From Methylococcales bacterium (GTDB taxonomy: Bacteria > Pseudomonadota > Gammaproteobacteria > Methylococcales > Methylomonadaceae), in the NCBI GenBank assembly GCA_028713145.1, contig JAQTOT010000001.1:1-52413 (forward strand): a stretch of DNA of 52,413 bases, written 5' to 3'. Below are positions 3,539 through 33,776 of this stretch, piece after piece. Both the position numbers and the translations under genes were made by a program. Numbering within the stretch: position 1 is the first letter of the stretch; the number at the start of each line of letters is the position of its first letter. The notes below the pieces were generated by a model that was not told the origin of the DNA, did not search any database, and was given only the letters and a program-made list of their open reading frames with translations.

Positions 3539-3561
3539 TTCTTACAAAAAAGGAATCAAAA

Positions 3562-4089
3562 ATGATGAAAACTAAAATTGCTCTTTTCGTTTTGCTGACA
3601 GGTTTAACAACTGCTTGTTTTGCCCAAATTTTTTACAGCAAAACGGAAGCCTTAGAACTCGCTTTTGGCAAAGCAACTATCGAAAATTTATCGCTTTTCC
3701 CCGATGAAGCACAATCGGCAAAAATTCAACAACTTGCCAAAACGAAGTTGGAATCGGGCTTATTTACGTTTTATGTCGGTAAAGAAAATGGCAAAGTTTT
3801 AGGTTACGCCGCAATTGAAAGTGAAACGGTACGAACAAAACCCGAAACAGTGATGATTTTGCTTACGCCTGAAGGCGAATTAAAAAGCGTCACGATTTTG
3901 GCATTTCATGAACCGCCTGAATATATGCCACCTGCACGCTGGTTTGAATCACTTGCAAAACGGTCGCTTGAGGAAATGGATTTTTCCAAAGGTGTTGATG
4001 GTGTTTCAGGCGCAACGTTAAGCACTCGTTCAGCGTTAAATAGCACGCGAAAAGTGATGGCAATTTATCAAGTGATGGTCAAAAAATAA
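3562..4089 (+). CDS. exported FMN-binding domain protein with a putative covalent flavinylation site
   Basis: 175 aa with SD AAGGAA upstream. N-terminal signal or lipoprotein-like peptide. C-terminal VDGVSGATLSTRS matches the D-G-x-S-G-A-T motif flavinylated in NqrC/RnfG-type FMN_bind domains. Confidence 0.7.
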   Translation: MMKTKIALFVLLTGLTTACFAQIFYSKTEALELAFGKATIENLSLFPDEAQSAKIQQLAKTKLESGLFTFYVGKENGKVLGYAAIESETVRTKPETVMILLTPEGELKSVTILAFHEPPEYMPPARWFESLAKRSLEEMDFSKGVDGVSGATLSTRSALNSTRKVMAIYQVMVKK

Positions 4090-4586
4090 TGCGTTATTTT
4101 GCAAGTGGTGAGCAACAACGAAAACTGTTACTCAATGCGCTAGTTTTAATGTTTTTGGCGTATATGCTTTTGCAATGTGTGAGCAATGCGCTGATGTATT
4201 TTCACCGCATGGATTTAACATTTGATTCGGTTGTAACGTATTACAACGGCAACGAAGAACAATTTATTCCTGCTAAAAGTTACGACGGAATGCTTGAAGT
4301 GTTGCATTTTCATTTGTTTTCGATGGGAATGCTTGCGGTCACACTGACGCATTTAATGCTCATGACTGACTTTTCTGTTCGTTTAAAAATTTGGCTCAGT
4401 TCCCTCACTTATTTTTCTGCCATTGCCGAAGAACTCGCAGGTTGGTTAGTTCGGTTTGTTCATCCGCAATTTGCCTATTTTAAAATTGCGACTTTTCTCA
4501 CTTTAGAATTGTCATTATTTGCGTTAATCGTTACAGTGTCATGGTCGCTTGTTAAAGCTCGAATCAATATGAAAAAAACGGCTTAA
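4089..4586 (+). CDS. 4-TM membrane protein of unknown function, translationally coupled to the FMN-binding protein
   Basis: 165 aa. TAATG stop/start overlap with the upstream gene. Four hydrophobic helices with conserved-looking His residues (YFHRM, LHFHLFSMG, LTHLM). Confidence 0.6.
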   Translation: MRYFASGEQQRKLLLNALVLMFLAYMLLQCVSNALMYFHRMDLTFDSVVTYYNGNEEQFIPAKSYDGMLEVLHFHLFSMGMLAVTLTHLMLMTDFSVRLKIWLSSLTYFSAIAEELAGWLVRFVHPQFAYFKIATFLTLELSLFALIVTVSWSLVKARINMKKTA

Positions 4587-4595
4587 CTTCGGTTT

Positions 4596-4615
4596 ATTAC
4601 TCTCGATTACTCTCG
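4596..4615. repeat. tandem 2 x 10 bp direct repeat (attactctcg attactctcg) in an intergenic spacer
   Basis: Read directly from the sequence. Confidence 0.9.
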
Positions 4616-4631
4616 CTTGTAGGTTCAAATT

Positions 4632-5033
4632 ATGAAAACAAAATTAGTGGTTTTTAGCATTGCGTTACTTTTACCTTTTAGCGTAAATGCGGATAGATAT
4701 GGACATCATGGCAATTATCGCGGACATTCAACTCATCATGGGCATGGCAATAGTTGGATTGCACCAGCCATTATTGGCGGTGTGATTGCAGGCACGGCAC
4801 TTTATGGTGCAACGCAAGAGAGAGAACCTGTTGATGACAGATATTATCGTCGTCCATTAACATCGCAAGAAATTCGAGAAGAGCAATTAAGGCAGCGTGA
4901 AATCGAACTTGAACGCCGCGAACATGAACTTTACGAGCGGCAAAGTCGGACGCGAGGTTATGACGACGATAATTGCAAAGAGTATTACCGTGACGATGGG
5001 CATTCGAGTTATTACTCAAGAAATTGCTGGTAG
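4632..5033 (+). CDS. secreted or membrane His-rich protein with a glycine-zipper segment and a charged Arg/Glu helix
   Basis: 133 aa. Signal peptide ending ...SVNA|D, then a His/Gly-rich stretch DRYGHHGNYRGHSTHHGHGN, hydrophobic IAPAIIGGVIAGTALYG, an RE-rich coil and a C-terminal Cys pair. Confidence 0.55.
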   Translation: MKTKLVVFSIALLLPFSVNADRYGHHGNYRGHSTHHGHGNSWIAPAIIGGVIAGTALYGATQEREPVDDRYYRRPLTSQEIREEQLRQREIELERREHELYERQSRTRGYDDDNCKEYYRDDGHSSYYSRNCW

Positions 5034-5037
5034 ACAC

Positions 5038-5078
5038 AAAAAAGGATAACGATTCAGGGGGAAGCGTTATCCTTTTCG
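5038..5078. terminator. bidirectional rho-independent terminator between convergent genes
   Basis: Stem aaggataacg / cgttatcctt of 10 bp, flanked by an A-run and a T-run. Confidence 0.8.
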
Positions 5079-5082
5079 TATT

Positions 5083-5274
5083 TTAGTGTGCGAGTTTTTC
5101 TTTCGCTTTTTCGGCTAAGTCATCAATAACCGAATGTTCATGCTGCGGATGTTCAAAATCCCCAAATGGTTCGCCGTCTTTTTTCATGTAGTTGTAAATA
5201 AAATACCCCAATGGCAGGAATGCCACTGTTGCAATAACCAACATAAAAATCGTAATTTCAATGATTGTACCCAT
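5083..5274 (-). CDS. small single-TM membrane protein with an acidic/His C-terminal tail
   Basis: 63 aa with a strong SD (AAGGAGA, 7 nt before the ATG). TM helix IEITIFMLVIATVAFLPLGYFIY, then a tail FEHPQHEHSVIDD. Confidence 0.6.
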   Translation of the reverse strand: MGTIIEITIFMLVIATVAFLPLGYFIYNYMKKDGEPFGDFEHPQHEHSVIDDLAEKAKEKLAH

Positions 5275-5448
5275 GTTTCATTCTCCTTCTTGTAGAGTAT
5301 TGTTCTTATTTTAGGCAAAGCGATAGTACACGTTTTTTTCGAGAATAAAAATATGAAATATATCCTCATCTATCGTATTAGTTTTCAAAACTAAACAAAG
5401 CTAAACGCGCTTGAATCAGTTAGCGTGAATCCGCCGTAATACGCCCTT

Positions 5449-5495
5449 CGTAACATCAGTTAAAACATATCAATCAGTATTTAACTGATGTTACG
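5449..5495. repeat. perfect 16-bp inverted repeat with a 15-nt loop, in the long lon upstream region
   Basis: cgtaacatcagttaaa ... tttaactgatgttacg. No adjacent T-run on either strand, so it is not a classical terminator. Confidence 0.85.
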
Positions 5496-5761
5496 CAGCC
5501 TGAAGTTTAGTCAATTCAGCATAAGCCATTTGAGTTGTGCGAATAAGTAGCTTTGCTCGCAAGGTAAAATGGTTGCGCTGATGTTTAATTTTCAAACATT
5601 CCAATTTGAAGAATCTATAAATCGACATGAAAACGTGATTGTTTTGTGTTGTCATCGTGTAAATGAGTGATTTGGAGAATCTTCATTTTTTGCCAAATCA
5701 GAATTGTGATTTTATTCACGTCGTTATGAACGTGTAATATCTGTTAATGAATGAAATACGT

Positions 5762-5790
5762 CTTGTTTTTCAGCGAAAATCCCCCCATAG
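5762..5790 (+). promoter_or_regulatory. sigma32 (heat-shock) type promoter for lon
   Basis: CTTGTTT-N14-CCCCATAG, compared with consensus CTTGAAA-N13/14-CCCCATNT. It lies about 55 nt upstream of the lon ATG. Confidence 0.55.
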
Positions 5791-5845
5791 TTTCTCTAAC
5801 TTTTTATTTCACTTTTTTATTTCTATTTCTTAATACGGTAACAAT

Positions 5846-8254
5846 ATGACTGAATCATTAACGCTCATTCCCGTACTGCCATTGCGTGACGTGGTGGTTT
5901 ATCCAAATATGGTCATTCCACTTTTTGTGGGGCGTGATCAATCTATCGACGCGCTTAATAATGCGATTAAAGACAACAATCAAGTGCTACTTGTTGCACA
6001 AAAAACACCTGACGTTGATGCGCCTGAAATCGAAGATTTGTACAAAGTCGGTACGCTTTCAAATATGTTGCAAATGTTAAAACTTCCAGATGGCACGGTA
6101 AAAGTGTTAATGGAAGGCGATCAGCGTTGCATTGTGCGCGGTTACGAGCGGCAAAATGGTTTTTTGTGTGCGCGAATTGAAACGGTCGATGAAACCTACA
6201 AAATGCCGAAAAAGGAAAAAAAGGTTTTAGAAAATACCGCGCTAAATTCTTTTGAAAGTTACGTTAAACACAATAATAAAATTCCGCCTGAAGTGATAAA
6301 TGCGCTCAATGAAATTGATGATGCGAGCCGTTTTGCTGACACGATGGCGGCACACATGAATTTAAAAGTGGCTGATAAACAATCGCTTTTAGAAACTTTC
6401 GATGTTGGCAAGCGTTTAGAATCGCTGCTTGCGTTTATGGAAGGCGAGGTCGATTTGTTTGAGACCGAGAAAAAAATTCGGATTCGCGTCAAAGAACAAA
6501 TGGATAAAAATCAGCGCGAATACTATTTAAATGAACAAATCAAAGCGATTCACAAAGAATTAGGTGAAACGGATGAGACTGAAACAGAAATTGATTTGCT
6601 CACCAAAAAAATTGACGAAGCTCAAATGCCTGAAGAAGCAAAAACGAAAGCATTGGACGAGTTGAAGAAACTCAAGCAAATGTCGCCAATGTCTGCTGAA
6701 TCGGCGGTTGTGCGTAATTATATTGAATGGCTCACAAATGTGCCGTGGTATAAAACAACTGAAGTTCAAAAAGAACTCGCCGCAGCAGAAGCCATTTTGA
6801 ATGAAGAGCATTTTGGTTTAGAAAAAGTCAAAGAACGTATTCTGGAATATCTCGCCGTGCAACAGCGTGTTGATAAATTAAAAGGCGCGATTTTGTGTTT
6901 GGTTGGTCCTCCAGGGGTGGGTAAAACGTCGCTTGGTGAGTCGATTGCACGCGCAACGAATCGTACTTACGTTCGTATGGCGTTAGGTGGTGTGCGTGAT
7001 GAAGCTGAAATTCGTGGACATCGTCGCACTTATATTGGCGCGATGCCTGGGAAAATCATACAAAATTTGTCGAAAGTCAAAGTGAAAAATCCGCTCTTTT
7101 TACTCGATGAAATCGATAAAATGACTACTGATATGCGTGGCGACCCTGCGTCAGCGTTGCTTGAAGTTTTAGACCCTGAGCAAAATAACGCTTTTGTTGA
7201 TCATTATTTAGATGTTGATGTTGATTTGTCAGACGTAATGTTTGTTGCAACGGCAAATAGTATGGATATTCCGCCCGCGTTACTCGACAGAATGGAAGTG
7301 ATTCGTTTAGAGGGTTATACCGAAGACGAAAAAATTAACATTGCCATGCGTTATTTGATTCCAAAACAAATCAAAGAAAACGGCTTGAAAGCAAAAGAAA
7401 TCGACATTGCCGAAGACGCTGTGCGCGATATGATTCGTTACTATTCGCGCGAAGCAGGCGTGCGAAATTTAGAGCGTGACGTATCGAAAATTTGCCGTAA
7501 AGTGGTGAAAGATTTACTACTTAAACCGCGTAAAACCAAAGTCAAAATCACGACGAAAAATTTGAGCGATTATTTAGGTGTGCGTCGTTACAGTTACGGT
7601 TTAGCAGAAGAAAAAGACCAAATTGGTTGTGTGACTGGCTTGGCTTGGACTTCGGTCGGCGGTGAATTGCTCACGATTGAAACGGCGGTCATCAACGGAA
7701 AAGGGAAATACTCAACGACAGGGAAGTTAGGTGACGTGATGAAAGAATCGATTGCCGCAGCGATGACGGTGGTTCGTAGTCGCGCTGAAGTTTTCGGTAT
7801 TGAAGATGAAGCCTTCCAAAACAAAGATATTCACATTCACGTTCCAGAAGGTGCTACGCCAAAAGATGGCCCGAGCGCGGGAATTGGAATGTGTACCGCG
7901 ATTATGTCAGCACTTACAAAAATTCCTGTGAAAGCGTCAGTTGCGATGACAGGGGAAATCACATTGCGTGGCGAAGTTTTAGCGATTGGTGGCTTAAAAG
8001 AGAAGTTACTTGCGGCGCATCGTGGCGGAATTACGACCGTGATTATTCCTAAAGAGAACGAAAAAGATTTAGTCGAAATTCCTGATAACATTAAACAAAA
8101 TTTAACGATTAAGCCTGTACGCTGGATTGATGAAGTGTTAGAAATTGCGTTGCAATATCAACCCGTTCCGCGCCAACCGATTGAAATTGATTTGACCGAT
8201 AAACCCAAAATTGAATCGTCGAAAAAAAATTCACCGCGTGTAACGGCACATTAA
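5846..8254 (+). CDS. lon: ATP-dependent Lon protease
   Basis: 802 aa. LON N-terminal domain, Walker [10 protein letters not shown], catalytic PKDGPSAG serine motif. Confidence 0.97.
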
Positions 8255-8300
8255 AATCCGTGCAGGCTAGATAATTCAAAGTCTGTAACGGCTTTATTCC

Positions 8301-8329
8301 TTGACAGGGTTAGCGCGGCGTTTTATAAA
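8301..8329 (+). promoter_or_regulatory. sigma70-type promoter for hupB
   Basis: TTGACA-N17-TATAAA. Confidence 0.55.
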
Positions 8330-8416
8330 TATGCCGCGTTTCAAGTGGTTAGAAACGAGTAAATACGGCATTTTGCTAACTATAAATTTAAAAATAAAAC
8401 TTCCTTAGGGGGAATG

Positions 8417-8689
8417 ATGAATAAATCGGAATTGATCAGTGAAATCGCAGAATCTGCAAAATTAACAAAAGCGGACGCTGGACGTGCATTAGATGGCTTT
8501 ATTGCGGCAGTGACAAAAGCATTATCGGCAAACGATGCGGTCGCTTTAGTCGGTTTTGGCACCTTTTCTGTGAAAGAAAGAGCAGAGCGCAAAGGGCGTA
8601 ATCCGCAGTCTGGAGAGGAAATTACGATTAAAGCAGCAAAAACTCCAACATTTAAAGCTGGTAAATCGTTAAAAGATGCTGTAAACTAG
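8417..8689 (+). CDS. hupB: DNA-binding protein HU-beta
   Basis: 90 aa from the second ATG (MNKSELI...); an ATG 3 nt upstream (8414) is an alternative start. [24 protein letters not shown] arm region typical of HU. Confidence 0.93.
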
Positions 8690-8702
8690 TTTCTATCAAG
8701 TC

Positions 8703-8778
8703 GGGTGCTTAGCTCAGCTGGTAGAGCATCGCCCTTACAAGGCGAGGGTCGGGGGTTCGAACCCCTCAGCACCCACCA
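8703..8778 (+). tRNA. tRNA-Val (anticodon TAC)
   Basis: 76 nt. I folded the cloverleaf by hand: acceptor GGGTGCT/AGCACCC, anticodon loop CTTACAA, T-loop GGTTCGAAC, encoded CCA. Confidence 0.92.
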
Positions 8779-8785
8779 CGACTTT

Positions 8786-8862
8786 GGAGTGGTAGTTCAG
8801 TTGGTTAGAATACCGGCCTGTCACGCCGGTGGTCGCGGGTTCGAGTCCCGTCCGCTTCGCCA
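8786..8862 (+). tRNA. tRNA-Asp (anticodon GTC)
   Basis: 77 nt. GGAGTGGTAGTTCAG...CCTGTCACG...GGTTCGAGTCCCG...GCCA, near identical to canonical gammaproteobacterial tRNA-Asp. Confidence 0.92.
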
Positions 8863-8871
8863 ATATCTAAA

Positions 8872-8905
8872 AAACCTCGAACCTTTGGGTTCGAGGTTTT
8901 TTTTT
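8872..8905 (+). terminator. rho-independent terminator after the hupB-tRNA unit
   Basis: cctcgaacc-ttt-gggttcgagg stem followed by a T9 run. Confidence 0.85.
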
Positions 8906-8941
8906 GCTTACTAACAATGCGTTTTTTGAGGTAGCCCTTTT

Positions 8942-10816
8942 ATGTTGACAAAAATTAGAGAAAAATCCCAAGGTGCTTTTGCAGGCGTGATTTTAACCGT
9001 CATTTGTGTCCCATTTGTTTTATGGGGAATTAACAACTACATCAACGATGGACAAGAATCCCCCGTTGCCTCTGTTGGCAAAAAAGATTTTTATCAACAC
9101 GATGTCACCAAAGCTGTCGAAAAGTACCGCCAAAGTTTAGGTGGTTTAGCCATCGACGAAGCCTCAATGAAATCACAAGCTCTAAGCAAACTCATCAAAG
9201 ACGAAGTGTTATTACAATACGTTCATCACAAAGGTTTAACCATCAGTGACGATGCAATTCGTGATTTTATTCATACGCTGCCTTATTTCCAAACTGATGG
9301 AAAATTCGATGAAGCCAAATATAAATCGATGCTCTCGTCGCAACGCATGTCTTCGCCTGAATTTGTCAGCCAAATTAAAAATGCGCTAGTCATGGAACAA
9401 TTCCAAAAAAGCGTTTTAGAAAGTAGTTTTGCCACGCCCTACGATTTAGAGCGTGTATTTAAAATCCAAAATCAACAACGTGATGTTGAATACGTTACCG
9501 TTCCTGTTGCAGCTTCAACGCAAACACCAAGCGATGATGCTATCAAAACATATTACGACGCACATCAAACGCAATTCCAAGTTCCAGAACAAATGTCCGT
9601 GGAATATATCGAATTGACGCTTGAAGATTTAGCGAAAACAGTTGAAGTCACTGACGAAAAAGTCAAAGCCTTTTATGAAGAGCAAAAAGCGCAATACTCA
9701 ACACCTGAACGTCGCAGAGTTGCTCACATTTTGTTTGAAATCAATGACAAACAAGACGAGAAAACAGCGTTAGAAAAAGCGACTAAAACTAAAGCCGATT
9801 TAGCGAGCAAAGATTTTGCAACACTTGCAAAAGAATTGTCTGACGACAAAGTCACAGGCAAAGACGGCGGCGATTTAGGTTTATTTAGCGCGGGCGTAAT
9901 GGAAAAAGATTTCGATAACGCCGCCATCGCGTTAAAACAAGGTGAAATTTCTGCACCTGTCAAATCACAATTTGGTTATCACTTAATTAAAGTAATCGAA
10001 TTAACGCCTGAACAAATCAAACCGTTTGAAAGTGTAAAAGCCGAAGTCACAAAGGCATATCAAAAATCGCAAGCTGAAAATTTGTTTTATCAACAAGGCG
10101 AAGTGTTGACCGAATCGGCTTATCAAAATTCGGACAATCTGCAAGCTAGCGCGTCGCAACTTAATTTAACGATTAAAAAAACAGGTCTTTTCACTAAAAT
10201 GCAAGGCGAAGGCATTGCTGCCGAAGAAAAAATTCGCAATGCAGCGTTTAGCGATGAAGTTTTAAATGGTACGAACAGCACGCCAATTGAAGTGAGCAAT
10301 GACCATTTAGTTGTTTTACGAATGCTTGAACACAAAGCGGCAGAAAATAAACCACTTGAACAAGTCAAACCTGAAATTGTGAAAGCGGTGCAACTCGAAC
10401 AAGCGCAGCAAAAAGCGATTGAAACAGCGAAAGAAATTAAAACAAAGTTACTCGCAGGTGAAACGTTGACAAAAGTTGCGGCTGATTACAAATTGCCTGT
10501 GAAAAAAGAAGTCGGTTTAACACGCATGAAAAAAGATTTTAATGTCTTTTTAAATGAAGCGATTTTTAAAGCGGCAAAACCTGTGAGTGATAAACCGAGT
10601 ATTTTCACCGTCGGTTTAGCTTCGCATGAACAAGTTGTTGTCAGTTTAACCAAAGTGCAAGAAGGCACTATGACTGAAGATGACAAGAAAAAAATAGAAT
10701 TGGCAAAGAAGAACATCTCAAAAGCGGTTGGGGACAGCGAATTCAACTCGCTAATTAACACGCTCGAAGATGACGCTGATGTTGAAATCAATCTGCCTGC
10801 AACCGCCGCACAATAA
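8942..10816 (+). CDS. ppiD: periplasmic chaperone / peptidyl-prolyl isomerase PpiD
   Basis: 624 aa. N-terminal TM anchor, central parvulin domain (GGDLGLFSAGVMEKDFDNAA...FGYHLIKV), and the conserved lon-hupB-ppiD synteny. Confidence 0.9.
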   Translation: MLTKIREKSQGAFAGVILTVICVPFVLWGINNYINDGQESPVASVGKKDFYQHDVTKAVEKYRQSLGGLAIDEASMKSQALSKLIKDEVLLQYVHHKGLTISDDAIRDFIHTLPYFQTDGKFDEAKYKSMLSSQRMSSPEFVSQIKNALVMEQFQKSVLESSFATPYDLERVFKIQNQQRDVEYVTVPVAASTQTPSDDAIKTYYDAHQTQFQVPEQMSVEYIELTLEDLAKTVEVTDEKVKAFYEEQKAQYSTPERRRVAHILFEINDKQDEKTALEKATKTKADLASKDFATLAKELSDDKVTGKDGGDLGLFSAGVMEKDFDNAAIALKQGEISAPVKSQFGYHLIKVIELTPEQIKPFESVKAEVTKAYQKSQAENLFYQQGEVLTESAYQNSDNLQASASQLNLTIKKTGLFTKMQGEGIAAEEKIRNAAFSDEVLNGTNSTPIEVSNDHLVVLRMLEHKAAENKPLEQVKPEIVKAVQLEQAQQKAIETAKEIKTKLLAGETLTKVAADYKLPVKKEVGLTRMKKDFNVFLNEAIFKAAKPVSDKPSIFTVGLASHEQVVVSLTKVQEGTMTEDDKKKIELAKKNISKAVGDSEFNSLINTLEDDADVEINLPATAAQ

Positions 10817-10831
10817 CTGTTGATTTTTTAG

Positions 10832-12088
10832 GTGAGTGTTTTGAATCTCAATAAAAACGTTACCCTCGAAATCAAACCGTTTTTGCGCTGGTGGGCGCGT
10901 GAATTGACGTTTTTGGTGCCAACTAAAATTCGCCAATTTTTTCACTCGCCGCAAGCGGCAATTATTGTGCGTTCAAATGGCGAGCAATTCGAACTCCGCT
11001 ATGAAATCAACGGAGAGCAAAAACATTTAGCTACCGTTGCGCGAGATATTTCAAAAGCGGCGGCTGTAAAAAATTTGCTTGCTGACGAACGATTTAAAAA
11101 TGCCATTTTTGTGTTGCGCTTATCGAATGCAGACGCGCTTTCAAAAACGGTCAATTTGCCGCTTGCCGCGCAAGCGAATGTGGCGCAAGTGGTCAGTTAT
11201 GAACTTGACCGTTACAGTCCGTTTAAAGCCGAACAAGTGTATTTTGCGACGCGCATTGAACGCATCGATACCGAAGCCGCGCAAATTGTTGTTCAACTGC
11301 TTCTCACTCCGAAAAAAATTCTTGAAAATCTTTATAGCGATTGCCAATTGTTAGGCATTACGCCGTCTGTTGTTGATGTCGAAAATTCCTCAAATGATTT
11401 GCAAAATCTGCATTCTGCTTACAACCTCCTTCCTTCTCATTTACAGCCCAAAGTCAAAAATACCTCGCGCTGGATAATTGGCGGATTATTGACGCTACTG
11501 ATTTTGCTAAGTCTTTCAAGTTTAATTTTGCCTGTATGGCTCGAATATCAAGCTGTTGAAGAGCTGCAAAACAAAATTTCAAAAATCGACAAAGAAGTCA
11601 AAGCTGTCAAAAACCTACAAGCAGAAATGGATTCGTTGCGCGAAGAAACGCAATTACTGATTAACGAAAAAACCGCCGCACCATCTGTTGTCGTAATACT
11701 CAATGAAATCAGCGCGTTAATGCAAGATGATAGCTGGCTTTCCTATTTGCAATACAGCGATGGGCAAGTGCAATTACAAGGCGAATCACAAGCGGCATCT
11801 AATTTGCTAGCAGACTTGGAAGCGTCAGATTATTTTGCCAAAGTCAGTTTTGCCTCGCCTGTGACGCAAGACAAAGCAAGCGGCTTGGAGCGTTTTCAAA
11901 TTACAGCTGAAATAACCAAACCAGATAATCCTGAAAACAGTGACGCGATAACCGACACAACTGCGGAGTCAACAAGTGAATCTAGTAAAGAGGTTAGCGA
12001 CGATTCGCCTGTTGAAACGACAGTTGAAGACGTAACAACTGAAGAAGTGGTGACTGAAAATGGTACTCCAGAAGAACAACCAAAATGA
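10832..12088 (+). CDS. gspL: GspL/PilM-PilN-like type II secretion assembly protein
   Basis: 418 aa. Cytoplasmic actin-like part (VVSYELDRYSPF), one TM (WIIGGLLTLLILLSLSSLILPVW), a periplasmic PilN-like ferredoxin fold region and an acidic S/T/E tail. The start is uncertain: GTG 10832, or TTG 10841, which follows SD AGGTGA. Confidence 0.65.
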   Translation: MSVLNLNKNVTLEIKPFLRWWARELTFLVPTKIRQFFHSPQAAIIVRSNGEQFELRYEINGEQKHLATVARDISKAAAVKNLLADERFKNAIFVLRLSNADALSKTVNLPLAAQANVAQVVSYELDRYSPFKAEQVYFATRIERIDTEAAQIVVQLLLTPKKILENLYSDCQLLGITPSVVDVENSSNDLQNLHSAYNLLPSHLQPKVKNTSRWIIGGLLTLLILLSLSSLILPVWLEYQAVEELQNKISKIDKEVKAVKNLQAEMDSLREETQLLINEKTAAPSVVVILNEISALMQDDSWLSYLQYSDGQVQLQGESQAASNLLADLEASDYFAKVSFASPVTQDKASGLERFQITAEITKPDNPENSDAITDTTAESTSESSKEVSDDSPVETTVEDVTTEEVVTENGTPEEQPK

Positions 12089-12647
12089 TCGCTTTTTAGC
12101 GGTCGGTTTATTGCTTGGTGTGATTGGATTTATTAGTTTTGTAATTATTATGCCGTTGGTAAATCAAGGACTTGCGTTGAATGAAGAAAAAAATGCGCTA
12201 GGTTTTCGTTTTGAACAATACGAGCGTATTTTGTCGCGCAAACAAAGCGTGATTGATGAAATGGAAAATCTGAAATCGCAAATTGCCGAGCAAAATTATT
12301 TAAGCACTCAAAATACGACTGCGTTAGCGTCTGCTGAGTTGCAGGAAATGATTAAGCAAGCGATTAACGATGCTGGTGGACAGCTTAGCAGTACGCAAGG
12401 TTTGCCTGTTGTGACAAAAAATAATTTTCAACGCATCCCCATTAACGTTCGCATGACGGGAAATAGCGAAGTTTTACGCGCCGTTTTGCATAAAATTGAA
12501 ACGTCCGCCCCGCTTGTTGTGATTGAACAAATCGATATTCGTCCGATGCGCGGTGTGCGAAATAAAGTCACGCATCAAATCGACCCGAGCAATGAACTAA
12601 GCGTGAATTTTCAAGCGGTTAGTTTTATGAAAAAACCTGCGGCATGA
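12060..12647 (+). CDS. gspM: GspM-like type II secretion protein
   Basis: 195 aa. N-terminal TM, then a coiled region plus a ferredoxin-like periplasmic domain (IPINVRMTGNSEVLRAVLHKIETS). Overlaps the gspL end by 29 nt. Confidence 0.6.
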   Translation: MVLQKNNQNDRFLAVGLLLGVIGFISFVIIMPLVNQGLALNEEKNALGFRFEQYERILSRKQSVIDEMENLKSQIAEQNYLSTQNTTALASAELQEMIKQAINDAGGQLSSTQGLPVVTKNNFQRIPINVRMTGNSEVLRAVLHKIETSAPLVVIEQIDIRPMRGVRNKVTHQIDPSNELSVNFQAVSFMKKPAA

Positions 12648-26700: not shown

Positions 26701-26765
26701 GTTAGCTCCGCATAAATTAGCGTAACAATTTTAACTATAACTATAACTTTTTTGGAGTGTACATC

Positions 26766-27407
26766 ATGGCAAAACCATTGATTCAAATGGCATTAGATTC
26801 ATTAGATTTCGACGCAACTATCTCATTAGCAAAACAAGTTGCTCCTTTTGTTGATATTTTCGAAATCGGCACACCTTGCATTAAACACAACGGTATTAAC
26901 TTAGTTAAAGCGTTGCGTGCAGAATTCCCTGATAAATTGTTGTTAGTTGACTTAAAAACGATGGACGCAGGCGAATACGAAGCGACCCCTTTCTATGCAG
27001 CTGGCGCAGACATCGTGACCGTTTTAGGTGTTTCAGGTTTAGCAACTTGCAAAGGTGTCATCAAAGCAGCTAACGCACACGCAGCTGAAGCACAAATTGA
27101 CTTAATCAATGTTGACGACAAAGCAGCTTGCGCTCGCGCAACCGTTGCAGCTGGCGCACAAATCGTTGGCGTTCACACAGGTTTAGATGCACAAGCAGCG
27201 GGTCACACACCATTTGCTGATTTGAGCTTAATTTCTGACTTAGGTTTGAACGTTCGTATTTCAGTTGCTGGCGGTATCAATACTAAAACTGTTCAAGACG
27301 TGGTTCGTGCAGGCGCAAGCATCATCGTTGTTGGCGCAGCTATCTATGGCGCACCATCACCAGCTGAAGCAGCTCGTGAAATCCGTGAATTAGTTGACGC
27401 TGTTTAA
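26766..27407 (+). CDS. hps: 3-hexulose-6-phosphate synthase
   Basis: 213 aa from ATG 26766 (SD GGAG 8 nt upstream). MAKPLIQMALDSLD...VDIFEIGTP...LLLVDLKTMDAGEYEA...VAGGI, highly similar to the Methylomonas Hps (RmpA) I recall. Confidence 0.95.
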   Translation: MAKPLIQMALDSLDFDATISLAKQVAPFVDIFEIGTPCIKHNGINLVKALRAEFPDKLLLVDLKTMDAGEYEATPFYAAGADIVTVLGVSGLATCKGVIKAANAHAAEAQIDLINVDDKAACARATVAAGAQIVGVHTGLDAQAAGHTPFADLSLISDLGLNVRISVAGGINTKTVQDVVRAGASIIVVGAAIYGAPSPAEAAREIRELVDAV

Positions 27408-27421
27408 TTAAAGGAAGCCTT

Positions 27422-27955
27422 ATGCACCAACAACTTATCTTAGATAAAATCACAGGTATCCTCGAAGCAACGGAGGAGGCGTATGATGAAAAACTCACTG
27501 CTATGCTCGACGACGCGGGTCGCATTTTTATTGCGGGGGCGGGACGTTCAAAACTAGTTGGCAATTTCTTTGCGATGCGGTTGGTGCATGGTGGTTACAA
27601 CGTAAATGTTGTCGGCGAAATCGTTACTCCAAGTATTAAAAATGGCGATTTACTAATCGTTATTTCAGGTTCTGGTGAAACTGAACAGTTGGTTGCCTTT
27701 ACAAAAAGCGCGAAAAAGGTTGGCGCGAAAATTATGTTGATTTCGTCAAGAGCAACATCAACAATCGGTGACATGGCAGATGGCGTTTTCCAAATCGGTC
27801 GTGAAGACTTGTATGGTAAAGTTGTTGGTATGCCAATGGGAACGGTTTTCGAGTTATCAACATTGCTTTTCTTGGAATCCACAATTTCTCATATTATTCA
27901 TGAGAAGGGCATTCCTGAAGAGATTATGCGCGAAAGACACGCAAATTTAGAATAA
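27422..27955 (+). CDS. phi: 6-phospho-3-hexuloisomerase
   Basis: 177 aa SIS-domain protein (RIFIAGAGRSKLV, LLIVISGSGET), directly downstream of hps. Confidence 0.92.
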   Translation: MHQQLILDKITGILEATEEAYDEKLTAMLDDAGRIFIAGAGRSKLVGNFFAMRLVHGGYNVNVVGEIVTPSIKNGDLLIVISGSGETEQLVAFTKSAKKVGAKIMLISSRATSTIGDMADGVFQIGREDLYGKVVGMPMGTVFELSTLLFLESTISHIIHEKGIPEEIMRERHANLE

Positions 27956-28075: not shown

Positions 28076-30061
28076 ATGACTTCGCGTAGAGAATTAGCAA
28101 ACGCTATTCGCGCTTTGAGCATGGATGCTGTACAAAAAGCAAATTCAGGACACCCAGGTGCGCCAATGGGTATGGCGGACATCGCCGAAGTGTTGTGGAA
28201 TGACCATTTAAAACATAATCCAACAAATCCACATTGGGCTGATCGTGACCGTTTCATTTTGTCAAATGGTCATGGCTCTATGTTGATTTACTCGTTATTG
28301 CATCTTTCAGGCTATGATTTGCCAATGAAAGAATTGCAATCGTTCCGTCAATTGCATTCTAAATGCCCTGGTCATCCAGAATACGGTTATGCACCTGGTG
28401 TTGAAACAACAACAGGTCCTTTAGGTCAAGGTATTACCAACGCGGTTGGTTTTGCAATGGCAGAAAAATTATTAGCGTATCAATTCAACAAACCAGGTCA
28501 TGAAATCGTTGATCATTACACTTATACTTTCTTAGGTGATGGTTGCATGATGGAAGGCGTGTCACACGAAGCATGTGCGCTCGCTGGAACTTGGGGCTTA
28601 GGCAAATTAGTTGCGTTCTGGGACGATAACAACATTTCTATCGACGGTCACATTGATGGCTGGTACACCGATGATACTGTAAAACGTTTTGAAGCCTACG
28701 GTTGGCACGTTCAATCAGTTGACGGTCATAATGCCGACCAAATCAACGATGCAATTAAAGCTGCAAAAGCGATTACAGATAAACCATCTTTAATTTGCTG
28801 CAAAACAATCATCGGATTCGGTTCACCAAATAAAAGCGGTAGCCATGATTGTCACGGTTCTGCATTAGGTGACGCGGAAGTTGCATTGACTCGTAAAGAA
28901 TTAGGTTGGACACACGAACCATTTGTGATTCCTACTGACATTTATGCTGGTTGGGATGCAAAAGCAAAAGGTGCTACAGCTGAAAAAGCATGGGACGAAA
29001 AATTTGCAGCTTACGCGGCAGCTTTCCCAGCAGAAGCAGCTGAATTCAAACGCCGCATGGCAGGTGATTTACCAGCGAACTGGAAAGAATTTACCGACGC
29101 ATTCATCAAAGCAACCAATGAAAAAGGCGAAAACTTAGCATCTCGCCAAGCGTCACAAAAAACAATTGCTGGTTTGGCTGAAATTTTACCTGAGTTTTTA
29201 GGTGGTTCTGCGGATTTGACAGGTTCAAACTTAACGAGTTGTTCAAGTTTCAAACACGTTAGTGGCAAAGAGCCAGGTAACTACATTTCTTATGGTGTAC
29301 GCGAATTCGGTATGTTTGCCATTATGAATGGTATGGCATTGCACGGTGGTTTATTGCCATTCGGCGGCACATTCCACATGTTCTCTGACTACGCGAAAAG
29401 CGCGTTGCGTATGGCTGCGTTGATGAAACAACGCACTATCGCCGTATTAACGCACGATTCAATCGGTCAAGGCGAAGATGGTCCAACGCATCAACCAATC
29501 GAAAATACATCTGGCTTACGTTATATTCCAAACATGGACGTATGGAGACCAGCTGATTCAACCGAAACTGCGGTTGCGTGGGTTTATGCTGTTGAACGTA
29601 AAAATGGACCAACTAGTTTGGTGTTGAGCCGTCAAGGTATTCCAGCTATTGCACATGATGATGCACAAATTGCTGCAATGCGTAAAGGTGCTTACGTCGT
29701 TTCAGAAGCAGCTGGTACAGCCAATGTGATTTTGATTGCAACAGGCTCAGAAGTCACATTAGCAATGAAATCACAAGCAGCATTAGCAGCTGAAGGTATC
29801 AATGCTCGCGTCGTTTCTATGCCATCGACTAATGTTTTTGATCGTCAAGATCAAGCCTACAAAGACAGCATTTTGATTCCTGGCGTTAAACGTGTAGCAA
29901 TCGAAGCGGGTGTTAGTGATTTCTGGCGTAAATATGTTGGTTTAGAAGGCGGTGTTGTTGGTATTGATACCTTCGGCGAATCAGCACCAGGCAACGTGTT
30001 ATTTGAACATTTCGGTTTCACGCCTGAAAACGTGGTCAAACACGTTAAAGCGGTGCTTTAA
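28076..30061 (+). CDS. tkt: transketolase
   Basis: 661 aa with [23 protein letters not shown], the GDGCMMEG ThDP motif and the full-length pattern. Confidence 0.97.
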
Positions 30062-30075
30062 TTTTTAGCACGAAT

Positions 30076-30106
30076 CCTCGATTAGTCTAACTAGTCGAGG
30101 TTTTTT
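30076..30106 (+). terminator. rho-independent terminator after tkt
   Basis: cctcgattag / ctagtcgagg stem with one mismatch, followed by T6. Confidence 0.65.
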
Positions 30107-30140
30107 GACTTTATATAACTACAAAAAAATAGGTGTCAAT

Positions 30141-30800
30141 GTGAAAAAAAATAATTTACTTCAAGGTGCAATCGTTGCGTTGTTAGTCGCTAGTCCATTT
30201 GCGGCTTATGCGGACTCACAATATCCGGCAACAGATTTTGAACCAAAAGTTTTATATCAAGACGAATCCATTAAATCTTCTGCTCCAGCAGTAAAAGCAG
30301 CTCCAGCGGCAGCAGCACCTGTTGCAGCAGCGTCGGCTGATGATTCGCAATATCCAGCAACCAATTTTCAACCAAAAGTGTTGTTTAGCGATGCTAATTA
30401 CAAGCACGATAAATCGGCGCCTTCAATTGCACCAACGTCTGCTCCTGAATTCACAACTAGCGCAGGTGCTGTCATTATGGAACAAGCCGCAGAAAAAAAA
30501 GCGGCAAAAGAAGATGACAACAGCTTATTTCTCATTTTAGGTGCATTAGCCGTAGCAGGTTTTGCGGCATCAAGATGTCCTAAATTTGCAGGTATTTTTG
30601 GCGGAAACTCGATGGCTGAAACGGAAGTTAATGCTAACCGCGAAACAGGTGTGGCACGTTATTTAAATGCTCGTGTACCTAAAGTTTCAGGTGTAACGAA
30701 ATACTTAGAACGCAACGTCAGACCAACCAATGTTGCACGATATATTGCTAAACAAAACATTGCTCAAAAAGCGGCTCAAAACGATACAGATCGGGGGTAG
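30141..30800 (+). CDS. bitopic membrane protein with 2 periplasmic DSQYPATxFxPKVL repeats and a cytoplasmic tail bearing 3 V-x-[KR]-Y-[LI] motifs
   Basis: 219 aa from GTG 30141 (SD AGGTG 5 nt upstream). Signal peptide ...SPFAAYA|DS, Ala/Pro linker, TM LFLILGALAVAGFAA, tail motifs TGVARYL, SGVTKYL, TNVARYI. No domain I recognise. Confidence 0.6.
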   Translation: MKKNNLLQGAIVALLVASPFAAYADSQYPATDFEPKVLYQDESIKSSAPAVKAAPAAAAPVAAASADDSQYPATNFQPKVLFSDANYKHDKSAPSIAPTSAPEFTTSAGAVIMEQAAEKKAAKEDDNSLFLILGALAVAGFAASRCPKFAGIFGGNSMAETEVNANRETGVARYLNARVPKVSGVTKYLERNVRPTNVARYIAKQNIAQKAAQNDTDRG

Positions 30801-30802
30801 TC

Positions 30803-31420
30803 ATGGGCTTTTTCTCAAGTCTTTTCGGGGCGCGTTCAGAGGACGCTTACAGCACCACAACTCGCAATGCGATTGTATCGGTGGCTGATTCGTCAAATGG
30901 ACAGACAGGCGTTAGTCGCTATTTGGAAAATCAGCCTGCTGGGTTAAGCAGTGTTGAAAAATATCTCAAAGCACAAGAACAAACTCAACCAAGCGGCGTA
31001 GCAAAGTATTTAGCACGTCAAGCCATCGCAGAGCGTAACAAACCTGTTGTAATCTTGTCAGGTGTTGAGAAATACTTGAAAAATAACAAAGATAGTGTGT
31101 CTGTTGTTGTGAAGAAAACAGGTGTTGAGAAGTATTTAGCAACACAAGACAAAACGCCTATGAGTCGTGTTGCAAAATATGCGTTGCAAAAAGCAATTGA
31201 AGAACGTAATGCGCCTGCAAAACCGAAAGCGACGCGCGTTGAAAGCTATTTACAAAGTCTTCCTGAAACGACCACGAGCAGTGTTAGCAAGTATTTGGCA
31301 AAACAAGCCTTAAATGTTGCTCTTCAAACAAAAGAAGAAGTTGCGGCAGTTGTCGATTCCATCGTAAGCGATGTAGCGTTGACAGGCGTTGAAAAGTATT
31401 TAAAAGCGCAACACAGCTAA
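30803..31420 (+). CDS. soluble low-complexity protein carrying 9 copies of a [ST]-x-V-x-[KRS]-Y-[LA] motif
   Basis: 205 aa. The ATG lies 2 nt after the upstream stop. Motifs at V37, V51, V66, V88, V108, V123, V145, V161 and V196. The N-terminus GFFSSLFGA resembles FAGIFGG in the upstream protein's tail. Confidence 0.6.
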   Translation: MGFFSSLFGARSEDAYSTTTRNAIVSVADSSNGQTGVSRYLENQPAGLSSVEKYLKAQEQTQPSGVAKYLARQAIAERNKPVVILSGVEKYLKNNKDSVSVVVKKTGVEKYLATQDKTPMSRVAKYALQKAIEERNAPAKPKATRVESYLQSLPETTTSSVSKYLAKQALNVALQTKEEVAAVVDSIVSDVALTGVEKYLKAQHS

Positions 31421-31454
31421 ACATTTTTTTAACTTTTAAAATCAGGTGTTCCTA

Positions 31455-32465
31455 ATGAGTCAATCTTTACTCGAACAATTAAAACAATACACAGTCGTTG
31501 TTGCCGACACAGGCGATATTGGTGCGATTGAAAAATTTACACCGCGTGATGCTACGACAAATCCGTCGTTAATTACGGCTGCTGCTCAAATGCCTAAGTA
31601 TCAAAGCATTGTCGATGATACGTTAAAAGGCGCGCGTGAAACTAAAGGCGCAAGTGCGTCAGCGGCTGATGTTGTGAGCCTTGCGTTTGATCGTTTAGCG
31701 GTTTCATTCGGATTGGAAATTTTAAAAATTATTCCAGGTCGTGTTTCAACTGAAGTTGATGCACGTTTATCTTTTGACACCGATGCGACTATTGCAAAAG
31801 GTCGTGACTTGATTGCTCAATATGAAGCAGCAGGTATTGATCGCAAACGCGTTTTAATCAAAGTTGCCGCAACATGGGAAGGTATTCAAGCTGCTGCCGC
31901 TTTAGAAAAAGAAGGTATTCACTGTAACTTAACATTGATTTTCGGTTTGCATCAGGCGATTGCCTGCGCTGAAAATGGTATCACGTTAATTTCGCCATTC
32001 GTTGGTCGTATTTTGGATTGGTACAAAAAAGATACAGGCAAAGAGGATTATGCACCAGCTGAAGATCCAGGTGTATTGTCAGTGACTGAAATTTACAACT
32101 ATTACAAAAAATTTGGTTACAACACCGAAGTGATGGGCGCAAGTTTCCGTAACATTGGTGAAATTATCGAACTGGCTGGTTGCGATTTATTGACTATTTC
32201 GCCTTCATTGCTTACAGAGCTTGATGAAGTCGCATTGTTGGATGCAGAACATGCAGATGGAAAATTGCCACGCAAGTTAAACGCTGAAGCCGCTGCGGCT
32301 TCTTCAATTGAAAAAATCAATGTTGATAAAGCAACATTCGACAAAATGCACGCAGCTGATCGTATGGCAACTGACAAGTTGGCTGAAGGTATCGACGGTT
32401 TTGCGAAAGCACTTGTTGTTTTAGAAACTTTGTTAGCAGATCGTTTAGCGGTTTTAGAAGCGTAA
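31455..32465 (+). CDS. tal: transaldolase
   Basis: 336 aa from ATG 31455 (SD AGGTG). [15 protein letters not shown], and [10 protein letters not shown] containing the Schiff-base Lys region. Confidence 0.95.
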
Positions 32466-32532: not shown

Positions 32533-33153
32533 TTATTTTGGACGGCGAGAACGAATCAGCAAAAAGAACATATAAAACGTAGCTAGCCATTCATAGCGGT
32601 ATCTAAACGGATTGAGTAGCCACAATTTTGTAATATGATCCCAATGAGTACGAATCAAAAACAGCACCAAAATATCGTTTAAAAAATCAATAATCGCTTT
32701 TTCTGGATCTTTAATCAGGGCATTAGGTTTTTTTAGCGTCAATTTTGTAATGATTTTAGCGGCTTGTAGCGTTTCTTTTACCTCAATCGTTTTCGCTTTC
32801 AACCAGCGTGTCGTTGCAAAATTATCGGCTTTTTCACTCACTTTCGTGCCAAATTTCGCCATTGCACTGGGTTTCTTTTCGACGTGAATCACTAACGCGC
32901 CTGACTTTTCAAGCTCGCTAACTAGTTCAAATACTTGTTTTACGAGTTGCGTGAAATCACACACTATCTCTTGAAAACGAATCGAAACCTTACCTTGCCG
33001 TGTGTAAAAACTGACTCGATAAACACCGTCAATTGCTTTTATTTTTGAGGCAAAATTTTCAGCAACGCCTTTTTGACATAATTGCGCGGGTAATTGAAAA
33101 CGGACGTGACCTTCAGCTCTATGGCGCAATACACATTGTTTTTGAATAGACAT
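32533..33153 (-). CDS. hypothetical protein: Cys-less HMA/ferredoxin-like N-domain plus a hydrophobic, Trp-rich C-terminal segment
   Basis: 206 aa. The N-terminal roughly 65 aa have a beta-alpha-beta-beta-alpha-beta-like pattern (HVRFQLP...IKAIDGVYRVSFYTRQGKVSIRF). C-terminus FLIRTHWDHITKLWLLNPFRYRYEWLATFYMFFLLIRSRRPK. Weak SD. Confidence 0.5.
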   Translation of the reverse strand: MSIQKQCVLRHRAEGHVRFQLPAQLCQKGVAENFASKIKAIDGVYRVSFYTRQGKVSIRFQEIVCDFTQLVKQVFELVSELEKSGALVIHVEKKPSAMAKFGTKVSEKADNFATTRWLKAKTIEVKETLQAAKIITKLTLKKPNALIKDPEKAIIDFLNDILVLFLIRTHWDHITKLWLLNPFRYRYEWLATFYMFFLLIRSRRPK

Positions 33154-33171
33154 AATTTCGATGAAATCAGT

Positions 33172-33217
33172 AGAAAAACAAAACGGGCTTTTCCAGCCTG
33201 CGCGAGAAAAACCCGTT
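33172..33217 (-). terminator. possible internal rho-independent terminator or attenuator
   Basis: Minus strand reads AACGGGTTTTT...AAAAGCCCGTT stem (one mismatch), followed by TTGTTTTTCT. Confidence 0.45.
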
Positions 33218-33239
33218 CATTGAATTTGATATAAAAAAC

Positions 33240-33527
33240 TTAGCTTTCTTTGGTTTCTGCTACTAAATCTTCTAAATTTTCTTTTTGTTGCAACACAAAA
33301 TCTTTACCTGCATCAACAACTTTTGTTGTGCTAGCAATAATGTCTTTACGATATTTGTGAATTAAAAATCCACTAACTAAACCTAAACCAAATACTACGA
33401 CTGGATTTTTAACTGCGATACTCATAACTTTACTCCCACTGTAAACGATTGCTGAGGCGATTGAACCTTTAAAAACTTCTTTGGGTAACGAATCACCGTT
33501 GTGTGTATTTTTGACGGCTTTTCCCAT
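33240..33527 (-). CDS. small membrane protein with a C-terminal amphipathic charged helix
   Basis: 95 aa. Central TM VVVFGLGLVSGFLIHKY, C-terminus KDFVLQQKENLEDLVAETKES. Lies 14 nt downstream of the preceding gene. Confidence 0.5.
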   Translation of the reverse strand: MGKAVKNTHNGDSLPKEVFKGSIASAIVYSGSKVMSIAVKNPVVVFGLGLVSGFLIHKYRKDIIASTTKVVDAGKDFVLQQKENLEDLVAETKES

Positions 33528-33541
33528 AAATACCTCTAAAA

Positions 33542-33700
33542 TTATTCTGGTAACACTTTATCTTCGTTCAACATCTGATAAATGCCCTTGCAACCTTCAC
33601 AGCAAAAAACTTTTTCTTCTCCTGTTTTCAATTTCAGCGTAAATCCAGAAACCTCAACAGTCAGATTGCACAAATCGCAAGTCTTTTTTCCTTCACTCAT
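33542..33700 (-). CDS. stand-alone 52-aa Cys-rich metal-binding domain, like the N-terminal domain of FixI/CcoI-type P1B ATPases
   Basis: Absent from the supplied ORF track (under 60 aa); I translated it by hand: MSEGKKTCDLCNLTVEVSGFTLKLKTGEEKVFCCEGCKGIYQMLNEDKVLPE. The CxxC...FCCxGCxxxY pattern matches the putative ATPase metal-binding domain (ATPase-cat_bd) from memory. Confidence 0.55.
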   Translation of the reverse strand: MSEGKKTCDLCNLTVEVSGFTLKLKTGEEKVFCCEGCKGIYQMLNEDKVLPE

Positions 33701-33776
33701 CACATTTACCTAACTAGCTGTTTAACTTGAGCAACATAGTAGCAAAAGTTACGATTTGTCACAATCTAAGAGCATT

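Follow-up and report, generated by a model that had tools for sequence, protein, structure and literature searches.

In the 52,413-nucleotide stretch of Methylococcales DNA analyzed here (GenBank assembly GCA_028713145.1, contig JAQTOT010000001.1, positions 1 to 52,413 of the forward strand; hereafter the window), two adjacent genes of a ribulose monophosphate (RuMP) pathway cluster, designated gene 1 (g1) and gene 2 (g2), encode proteins that together carry 12 copies of a short peptide motif with the consensus [ST]-G-V-x-[KR]-Y-L. Both genes are real and under purifying selection, and the pair suggests, without proving, a tether by which carbon-fixing enzymes would be kept at the membrane. 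As a preliminary description made from the window alone had proposed, the pair lies between the transketolase gene tkt and the transaldolase gene tal, with hps and phi upstream and a gap of 2 bases between the stop of gene 1 and the ATG of gene 2.

In its strict form, V-x-[KR]-Y-[LI], the motif occurs three times in the gene 1 protein and seven times in the gene 2 protein, and the relaxed copies SRVAKYA and TRVESYL bring the total to 12. The same count had been given before, and each quoted peptide was found in its place, including the nine of gene 2 (TGVSRYL, SSVEKYL, SGVAKYL, SGVEKYL, TGVEKYL, SRVAKYA, TRVESYL, SSVSKYL and TGVEKYL). Composition-matched shuffles contained on average 0.006 (gene 1) and 0.014 (gene 2) copies and reached the observed counts in 0 of 20,000 cases, and the strict motif was absent from all other stop-free stretches of at least 100 amino acids in the window. 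At the DNA level the repeat copies are 62-80% identical and are therefore old repeats, maintained at the peptide level; a recent DNA repeat was rejected on the same figures.

Conservation was quantified for 1,379 motifs from 240 homologues. Valine is present in 100% of them, tyrosine in 99% and serine or threonine at two residues before the valine in 99%, followed by lysine or arginine before the tyrosine (94%), glycine before the valine (69%) and glutamine at position +7 (54%). The mean frequency of the top residue is 0.83 in motif-core columns versus 0.48 elsewhere, and alignment gaps fall almost wholly in the variable linkers, with zero inside the gene 2 motif cores. The gene 2 alignment of 53 homologues has 23 invariant columns, 22 of which are V, Y, L, K or G of the motif, the other being the start methionine. 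Ratios of nonsynonymous to synonymous substitution (dN/dS), computed against five relatives with dS saturated and similar for core and linker, were 0.12-0.16 (gene 1) and 0.07-0.12 (gene 2), compared with 0.06-0.12 for the neighbors hps and tkt, and at equal dS the linker dN was 2-15 times that of the motif cores. DNA divergence, core conservation and core dN thus bear out the initial proposal that the peptide motif, and not the DNA, is what is conserved.

The arrays also show the generic features of multivalent short linear motifs, namely at least three conserved copies, fast-evolving variable linkers and a copy number that varies among orthologues, with 6-13 motifs per protein among 120 listed g2 homologues and about 20-27 in variants of 406-631 amino acids. 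Two flavors alternate, a short A type ([ST]GV[EAS]KYLxxQ) and a longer B type (S[GR]VAKY[LM]A[KR]QAIxE[RK]NxP). The near-invariant serine or threonine followed by glycine fits a helix N-cap, and V-x-x-Y-L would form one small hydrophobic helix face.

From hydropathy and AlphaFold, the gene 1 protein is predicted to cross the membrane once, as a type I protein, and to bear motifs on either side. The two 17-residue periplasmic repeats, the single predicted transmembrane segment and the three tail motifs of the preliminary description were all confirmed at their positions; of the cleavable signal peptide, the signal-like segment and its AxA site are present, while cleavage itself is putative. The top Kyte-Doolittle window of the protein is LFLILGALAVAGFAA (residues 129-143), and basic residues follow the transmembrane segment in all gene 1 homologues. 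The AxA site, the hydropathy peak, AlphaFold helices 6-16 and 129-141 and the basic tail all fit a type I topology. The periplasmic part is acidic (isoelectric point, pI, 4.5) and the tail basic (pI 10.2). The periplasmic repeats follow the pattern YPAxDFxPKV, two here and three in some gene 1 homologues; in repeat 1 Y28, P29, A30, D32 and P35 are invariant (52 homologues), and in repeat 2 D68, P72, A73, P78 and D84 are invariant among the gene 1 homologues. AlphaFold2 with a deep family alignment returned no fold (predicted local distance difference test, pLDDT, 56; predicted template modeling score, pTM, 0.14). Besides the two helices already named it placed helices only on the tail motifs (170-178, 184-190 and 197-213), together with a four-residue turn (72-75) in periplasmic repeat 2. 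The tail (residues 164-219) is homologous to residues 29-101 of gene 2, an A-A-B-A module (hhalign, 99.5% probability). Another protein (P0379, 215 amino acids, from a 1.5-kb contig) is secreted-looking and carries four EKYPAANFEPxVVY periplasmic repeats but lacks GVxKYL, so that the periplasmic motif can exist independently.

The gene 2 protein was likewise non-globular in AlphaFold2 with a deep family alignment (pLDDT 66, pTM 0.19). Its nine motifs, at residues 35, 49, 64, 86, 106, 121, 144, 159 and 194 and thus spaced 14-35 amino acids apart, each start one short helix (36-42, 50-59, 65-78, 87-94, 107-115, 122-136, 145-152, 160-189 and 196-203). The protein has a pI of 9.5, versus 4.8-5.9 for Hps, Phi, Tkt and Tal. 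Gene 1 had been described as membrane-anchored and gene 2 as soluble; the predicted transmembrane segment of gene 1 and the lack of one in gene 2 stand, but the gene 2 protein has a hydrophobic N-terminus, GFFSSLFGA, at the place of which long gene 2 orthologues start with a hydrophobic segment of about 16 residues (GLFFPAVAGLFFFM). On account of these two segments we read the gene 2 protein as probably peripherally membrane-attached rather than freely soluble.

In a collection of 5.8 billion proteins, 512 homologues of gene 2 and 208 of gene 1 were found, almost all of them unnamed or annotated as 'hypothetical protein', and profiles run against 1.84 billion representative proteins matched only 536 clusters, a sign of a rare family, with gene 1-type members of 200-270 amino acids and gene 2-type members of up to 631. 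A scan of one genome per species (185,579 species) identified 123 relatives, the best 80 of which (79 loci) supplied taxonomy and loci. Within these 80, each record that names an order, family or genus belongs to Methylococcales, the others being labelled uncultured proteobacteria or similar. The named genera are Methylobacter, Methylomonas, Methylomicrobium, Methyloprofundus, Methylomarinum, Methyloglobulus and Methylicorpusculum, joined by mussel symbionts, and all named genera among the matches listed are type Ia (NCBI Methylococcaceae) methanotrophs.

At least one RuMP gene is present in 83 of the 87 fetched loci, and 66 of the 87 have the order tkt-g1-g2-tal; the four loci without a RuMP gene comprise one 2.8-kb contig and three in which the match lies near the end of the fetched stretch. 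Gene 1 comes after tkt in every locus holding both. Neither the flanking parts of the window nor the eight loci whose called genes were read contain Rubisco or shell genes. Homologues in non-methylotrophs without RuMP linkage, the case that the preliminary description had named as damaging, did not turn up among the matches listed. The restriction to RuMP neighborhoods of methylotrophs, which it had proposed to check, was borne out for methanotrophs, but the pair does not appear to be general among RuMP methylotrophs, the named matches being all type Ia.

Where the order has been rearranged (L043, L064, L083 and L084), members of the pair still adjoin tkt or hps. Locus L043 reads tkt'-g2-hps-phi-tkt-g1-tal. 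In L064, from a Methylomonas metagenome-assembled genome (MAG; 2325-12342), hps-phi-tkt is present in tandem with identical tkt copies (3694-5679 and 9540-11525), g2 (544 amino acids) standing after copy one and g1 after copy two. In the gammaproteobacterial MAG locus L083 (7563-14845) a fused hps-phi gene is followed by a 623-amino-acid g2 and then by hps, phi, tkt and g1, and in L084 (4592-7270) g2 lies directly 5' of hps. Since the neighborhood has been kept through several independent rearrangements, the RuMP enzymes would be the likeliest clients of the pair.

Apart from these matches of the family to itself, nothing known was recovered. Pfam and NCBIfam gave nothing above threshold for either protein, and PDB profile searches gave nothing significant, matching an esterase (E = 1.4) and a designed helical repeat whose alignment (E = 0.01) is confined to the transmembrane and low-complexity region; the best Foldseek E-value against the PDB was 5.5. 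Matches to U1snRNP70_N, DUF6292 and ATP_synth_reg were rejected as low-complexity or single-helix matches, mostly below cut-off; a few long variants pass the whole-protein cut-off of U1snRNP70_N, with no single stretch significant. A match to RHH_5 (PF07878), at 18.3 bits versus a cut-off of 26 bits, spans only profile positions 19-42 (of 43); it was set aside as due to chance, being below cut-off and confined to a single one of the 53 family members. No phasin, CP12 or CsoS2 Pfam match was found among the window proteins and the 53 members of the gene 2 alignment. The motif thus matches no named domain, as first stated, and the nucleic-acid-binding, peptidoglycan or phasin-type match that had been listed as an argument against a scaffold was looked for and not found. 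Published literature, searched for the motif strings, for RuMP condensates or metabolons and for the operon, yielded no account of these proteins or of any RuMP scaffold. With neither a database match nor a literature account, the family appears to be undescribed in the sources searched.

The coordinates of the cluster are collected in Table 1. The start of gene 1 at GTG 30141, with AGGTG at 30131-30135 as the ribosome-binding candidate, was upheld from the earlier reading and is preferred over an upstream TTG at 30105 because gene 1 homologues all start with MKKNN. The spacing between g1 and g2 is 2-3 nucleotides also in loci with only 40-45% identity. For hps, tblastn identity to related loci is 78-100%.

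Table 1. Features of the RuMP cluster and of the two motif-bearing genes, in window positions (ORF, open reading frame; aa, amino acids).
Feature	Position	Strand	Remarks
hps (3-hexulose-6-phosphate synthase)	26757..27407	+	ORF; orthologues with Pfam OMPdecase; opens the RuMP cluster
phi (6-phospho-3-hexuloisomerase)	27422..27955	+	ORF; orthologues with Pfam SIS
tkt (transketolase)	28076..30061	+	ORF; orthologues with Transketolase_N, Transket_pyr, Transketolase_C; directly 5' of gene 1
Terminator-like hairpin	30076..30100	+	strong, with an 11-bp stem and T6 behind it; lies in the tkt-gene 1 gap
Gene 1	30141..30800	+	219 aa; GTG start; stop TAG 30798-30800
Signal peptide (predicted)	30141..30212	+	aa 1-24, MKKNNLLQGAIVALLVASPFAAYA; ends in AYA, followed by D; AlphaFold helix 6-16; putative cleavage
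Periplasmic repeat 1	30213..30263	+	DSQYPATDFEPKVLYQD, aa 25-41; repeat family D3
Periplasmic repeat 2	30342..30392	+	DSQYPATNFQPKVLFSD, aa 68-84; repeat family D3
Transmembrane helix (predicted)	30522..30572	+	about aa 128-144; AlphaFold helix 129-141
Tail motif TGVARYL	30645-30665	+	
Tail motif SGVTKYL	30687-30707	+	
Tail motif TNVARYI	30726-30746	+	
Gene 2	30803..31420	+	205 aa; ATG start
Hydrophobic N-terminal segment GFFSSLFGA	30806..30832	+	mean hydrophobicity H = 0.57; candidate membrane-targeting sequence
Nine motifs [ST]-x-V-x-[KRS]-Y-[LA]	30905..31402	+	21 nt each
Gene 2 motif starts	30905, 30947, 30992, 31058, 31118, 31163, 31232, 31277, 31382	+	
tal (transaldolase)	31446..32465	+	ORF; orthologues with Pfam TAL_FSA; directly 3' of gene 2

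The reading that we favor, tentatively and at somewhat less than an even chance, is that the pair forms a membrane-anchored multivalent adaptor for RuMP enzymes. The two proteins would be intrinsically disordered and membrane-attached, displaying the motif array toward the cytoplasm. Gene 1 would contribute periplasmic YPAxDFxPKV motifs on an acidic disordered stalk, one transmembrane segment and a basic cytoplasmic tail, and gene 2 would multiply the tail module behind its short hydrophobic N-terminus. Each N-capped helix could offer its invariant Val-x-x-Tyr-Leu face to a groove of a folded, oligomeric and acidic cytoplasmic partner, many weak contacts together keeping this partner layered or clustered along the membrane. 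The likeliest partners would be the RuMP enzymes encoded nearby (Hps, Phi, Tkt, Tal and Fba), and formaldehyde capture would thereby take place beside the membrane where periplasmically made formaldehyde enters. The charges fit as complementary, with a basic gene 2 protein and gene 1 tail versus acidic Hps, Phi, Tkt and Tal, and a variable motif number among orthologues, from 9 to about 27, is as expected for a valency-tuned linker. Such a scaffold, whose central element is the putative binding of RuMP enzymes, fits everything that was checked computationally. A rather unlikely extension makes gene 1 a two-sided tether, in which YPAxDFxPKV would hold methanol dehydrogenase or the lumenal face of the particulate methane monooxygenase (pMMO) while the tail and gene 2 condense RuMP enzymes; if true, the making and the fixing of formaldehyde would be joined in one assembly across the membrane, a pyrenoid-like C1 condensate on type Ia intracytoplasmic membranes.

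Arrays of this kind had initially been likened to CsoS2, CcmM, EPYC1 and CP12, and the part of the comparison that stands is the EPYC1-type anatomy, whereas the features that define the CsoS2 and CP12 families are lacking. EPYC1, the linker of the Chlamydomonas pyrenoid, is a basic, disordered protein whose repeats each have one short helix contacting a folded, oligomeric and acidic enzyme, valency driving the clustering; gene 2, with nine short helices in a non-globular protein of pI 9.5, has the structure expected of an EPYC1-type linker. There is no sequence similarity between them and the motif is another one. EPYC1 is a soluble protein with the Rubisco small subunit as its partner, whereas the gene pair is predicted to be membrane-attached and belongs to the RuMP pathway, with candidate partners there. 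CsoS2 and CcmM are comparable as basic proteins encoded inside the operon of an organized pathway, with many short enzyme-binding elements and variable linkers. However, the window proteins have neither the Pfam CsoS2 match, the [VI][TS]G repeats nor the cysteines of CsoS2, showing [ST]GVx[KR]YL instead, and they lack the SSUL domains of CcmM; moreover, gene 1, a transmembrane partner with periplasmic motifs, has no carboxysome counterpart. The likeness to EPYC1 and CsoS2 is thus a resemblance in the possible mode of working, not homology.

Several points weigh against the adaptor. Protein binding by the motif, the identity of the partner and the membrane topology are deduced from sequence, models and gene context. 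The motif helices are basic and weakly amphipathic (HeliQuest-type D 0.0-1.6), which makes lipid binding conceivable, and known-domain fusions are absent among the ten variants scanned (215-631 amino acids). Type Ib genera and non-methanotroph RuMP methylotrophs are absent among the named best 80-150 matches listed, and RuMP function therefore needs no such pair. A conserved gene order within one family could, furthermore, partly reflect shared ancestry and not functional coupling. Finally, the sequence around the pair leaves room for a separate bicistronic unit, and the pair may be one or be expressed at a lower level than hps-phi-tkt. In L003 a promoter-like site (7241-7268) precedes g1 and a 17-bp hairpin (8693-8729) follows g2, which together with the hairpin before gene 1 in the window suggests that the pair can be its own transcription unit; the corresponding site of L001 and of L003 showed no terminator-like hairpin. 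In the window, the hairpin in front of gene 1 may speak against joint transcription with tkt and tal. Transcriptome tables for Methylomonas DH-1 give about 2,400-4,500 fragments per kilobase per million mapped reads for hps, about 1,200 for tkt and about 600 for fba, and list phi but not the gene pair.

An organizer of membranes, which we consider unlikely, is the first alternative to be weighed. Here the basic disordered helices would attach to anionic lipids or to the surfaces of membrane proteins and hold together or space out the intracytoplasmic stacks, the periplasmic repeats of gene 1 acting on the lumen side and the RuMP site merely giving strong, constitutive expression. Type Ia methanotrophs, to which all named hosts belong, build stacked intracytoplasmic membranes; both proteins are basic, predicted to be membrane-attached and without a fold, and gene 1 has motifs on both membrane sides. 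Myelin basic protein and other disordered proteins of membrane adhesion are similar in being basic and forming short amphipathic helices at a membrane surface, but differ from the gene pair, whose motif has invariant residues and low hydrophobicity and whose RuMP surroundings have nothing to do with building membranes. Amphipathic helices that bind lipid tolerate exchanges of one hydrophobic residue for another, and an invariance as strict as that of V, Y and S/T is unusual for them; the mean hydrophobicity of the motif helices is low (H = 0.0-0.4). Moreover, rearrangements have not parted the genes from hps or tkt, none of the loci read shows them next to pmo or to genes of membrane biogenesis, and type Ib methanotrophs, which also stack their membranes, are missing from the named matches listed.

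The motif helices could also act as homotypic stickers, binding each other, both between the g1 tail and g2 and among g2 copies, in a self-assembled membrane mesh that recruits any clients non-specifically by charge, a possibility we regard as improbable. The module common to the g1 tail and g2 would suit it, and so would the 2-3 nucleotide spacing, which suggests translational coupling and a fixed stoichiometry, the hydrophobic residues that B-type helices, read from the motif sequences, have on two faces, and the coiled-coil-like stretches added in long variants. However, AlphaFold shows no confident helix packing inside g2, as its pTM of 0.19 indicates, and both components are net positive, so that self-association is disfavored without a polyanion.

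A CP12-like regulator, by which the disordered proteins would bind a single RuMP enzyme and, in certain conditions, inhibit or sequester it instead of organizing the pathway in space, appears highly improbable. CP12 is a small disordered protein that binds sugar-phosphate cycle enzymes, and the pair shares with it the disorder, while its repeated short motifs and its place inside a sugar-phosphate cycle operon would also be in keeping with regulation. CP12 has, in contrast, about 80 amino acids, two redox-active cysteine pairs and a single AWD_VEEL core, whereas the family of the window has 3-27 repeats, is predicted to be membrane-attached and lacks such cysteines (one Cys in gene 1 and zero in gene 2), as well as the CP12 Pfam match; membrane anchoring and a valency of 9-27 would be needless for a stoichiometric inhibitor. 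That the basic helical repeats tether RNA, DNA or polyphosphate to the membrane is scarcely credible, for although pI values of 9.5-10.2 and the weak match to the helix-turn-helix part of RHH_5 point that way, the match is sub-threshold and restricted to a single member, searches of Pfam, NCBIfam and the PDB turned up no nucleic-acid-binding domain, and this reading would not account for the RuMP synteny. The remaining probability lies with functions outside the readings listed here.

Formaldehyde is a toxic intermediate of methanotrophs that is made outside the cytoplasm, fixed inside it and split between assimilation and oxidation, and its handling is a long-standing question. A membrane-bound hexulose phosphate synthase was reportedly described in Methylococcus by Ferenci, Strøm and Quayle (Biochem J, 1974). 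A conserved, unannotated gene pair in the middle of the RuMP cluster is a concrete and genetically testable candidate for spatial organization of the pathway. The multivalent adaptor, if it holds true, would be the first condensate- or tether-type organizer described for a C1-assimilation pathway other than CO2 fixation, and a seven-residue helical tag with its receptor would be a compact tool for synthetic methylotrophy; a membrane-shaping role, if true, would bear on how intracytoplasmic stacks are built.

Additional features were observed among the relatives of the pair. Long gene 2 variants of 406-631 amino acids (L044 6220-7440; L064 5828-7462; P0290, P0294, P0310 and P0373) add an Ala/Glu/Lys-rich, coiled-coil-like central stretch that is absent from the window protein, as well as a conserved 'LEGEFIPA' and a second motif, 'A-x-I-[IV]-A-[RK]-Y-L-E-E', neither of which occurs in the window protein. 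An antisense reading of the repeats was rejected, dN/dS and homologue lengths favoring the plus strand. Long antisense ORFs opposite gene 2 on the minus strand, at 5859-7025 in L043 ('RYFATPV' repeats) and at 6306-6590 and 7182-7487 in L044 ('RYFATPV' or 'KYLATPV'), are by-products of the repeated motif, which gene prediction could mistake for genes.

The tkt beside gene 1 falls into two classes, with about 82-99% versus about 64-68% identity to the window Tkt, and gene 1 follows either; the comparison set L002, L003, L038, L041, L044, L045 and others against L001 and L004-L037. No such split was seen for hps, phi or tal. Loci L083 to L087 have a common upstream block encoding PfkB, Dak2, Dak1 and a HAD hydrolase. 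Finally, directly 3' of tal the window has small minus-strand ORFs (32533-33703) where most relatives have fba; the 53-amino-acid ORF at 33542-33703 carries a TRASH / ATPase-cat_bd-like metal-binding motif, and the 206-amino-acid ORF at 32533-33153 a weak match to HMA_2.

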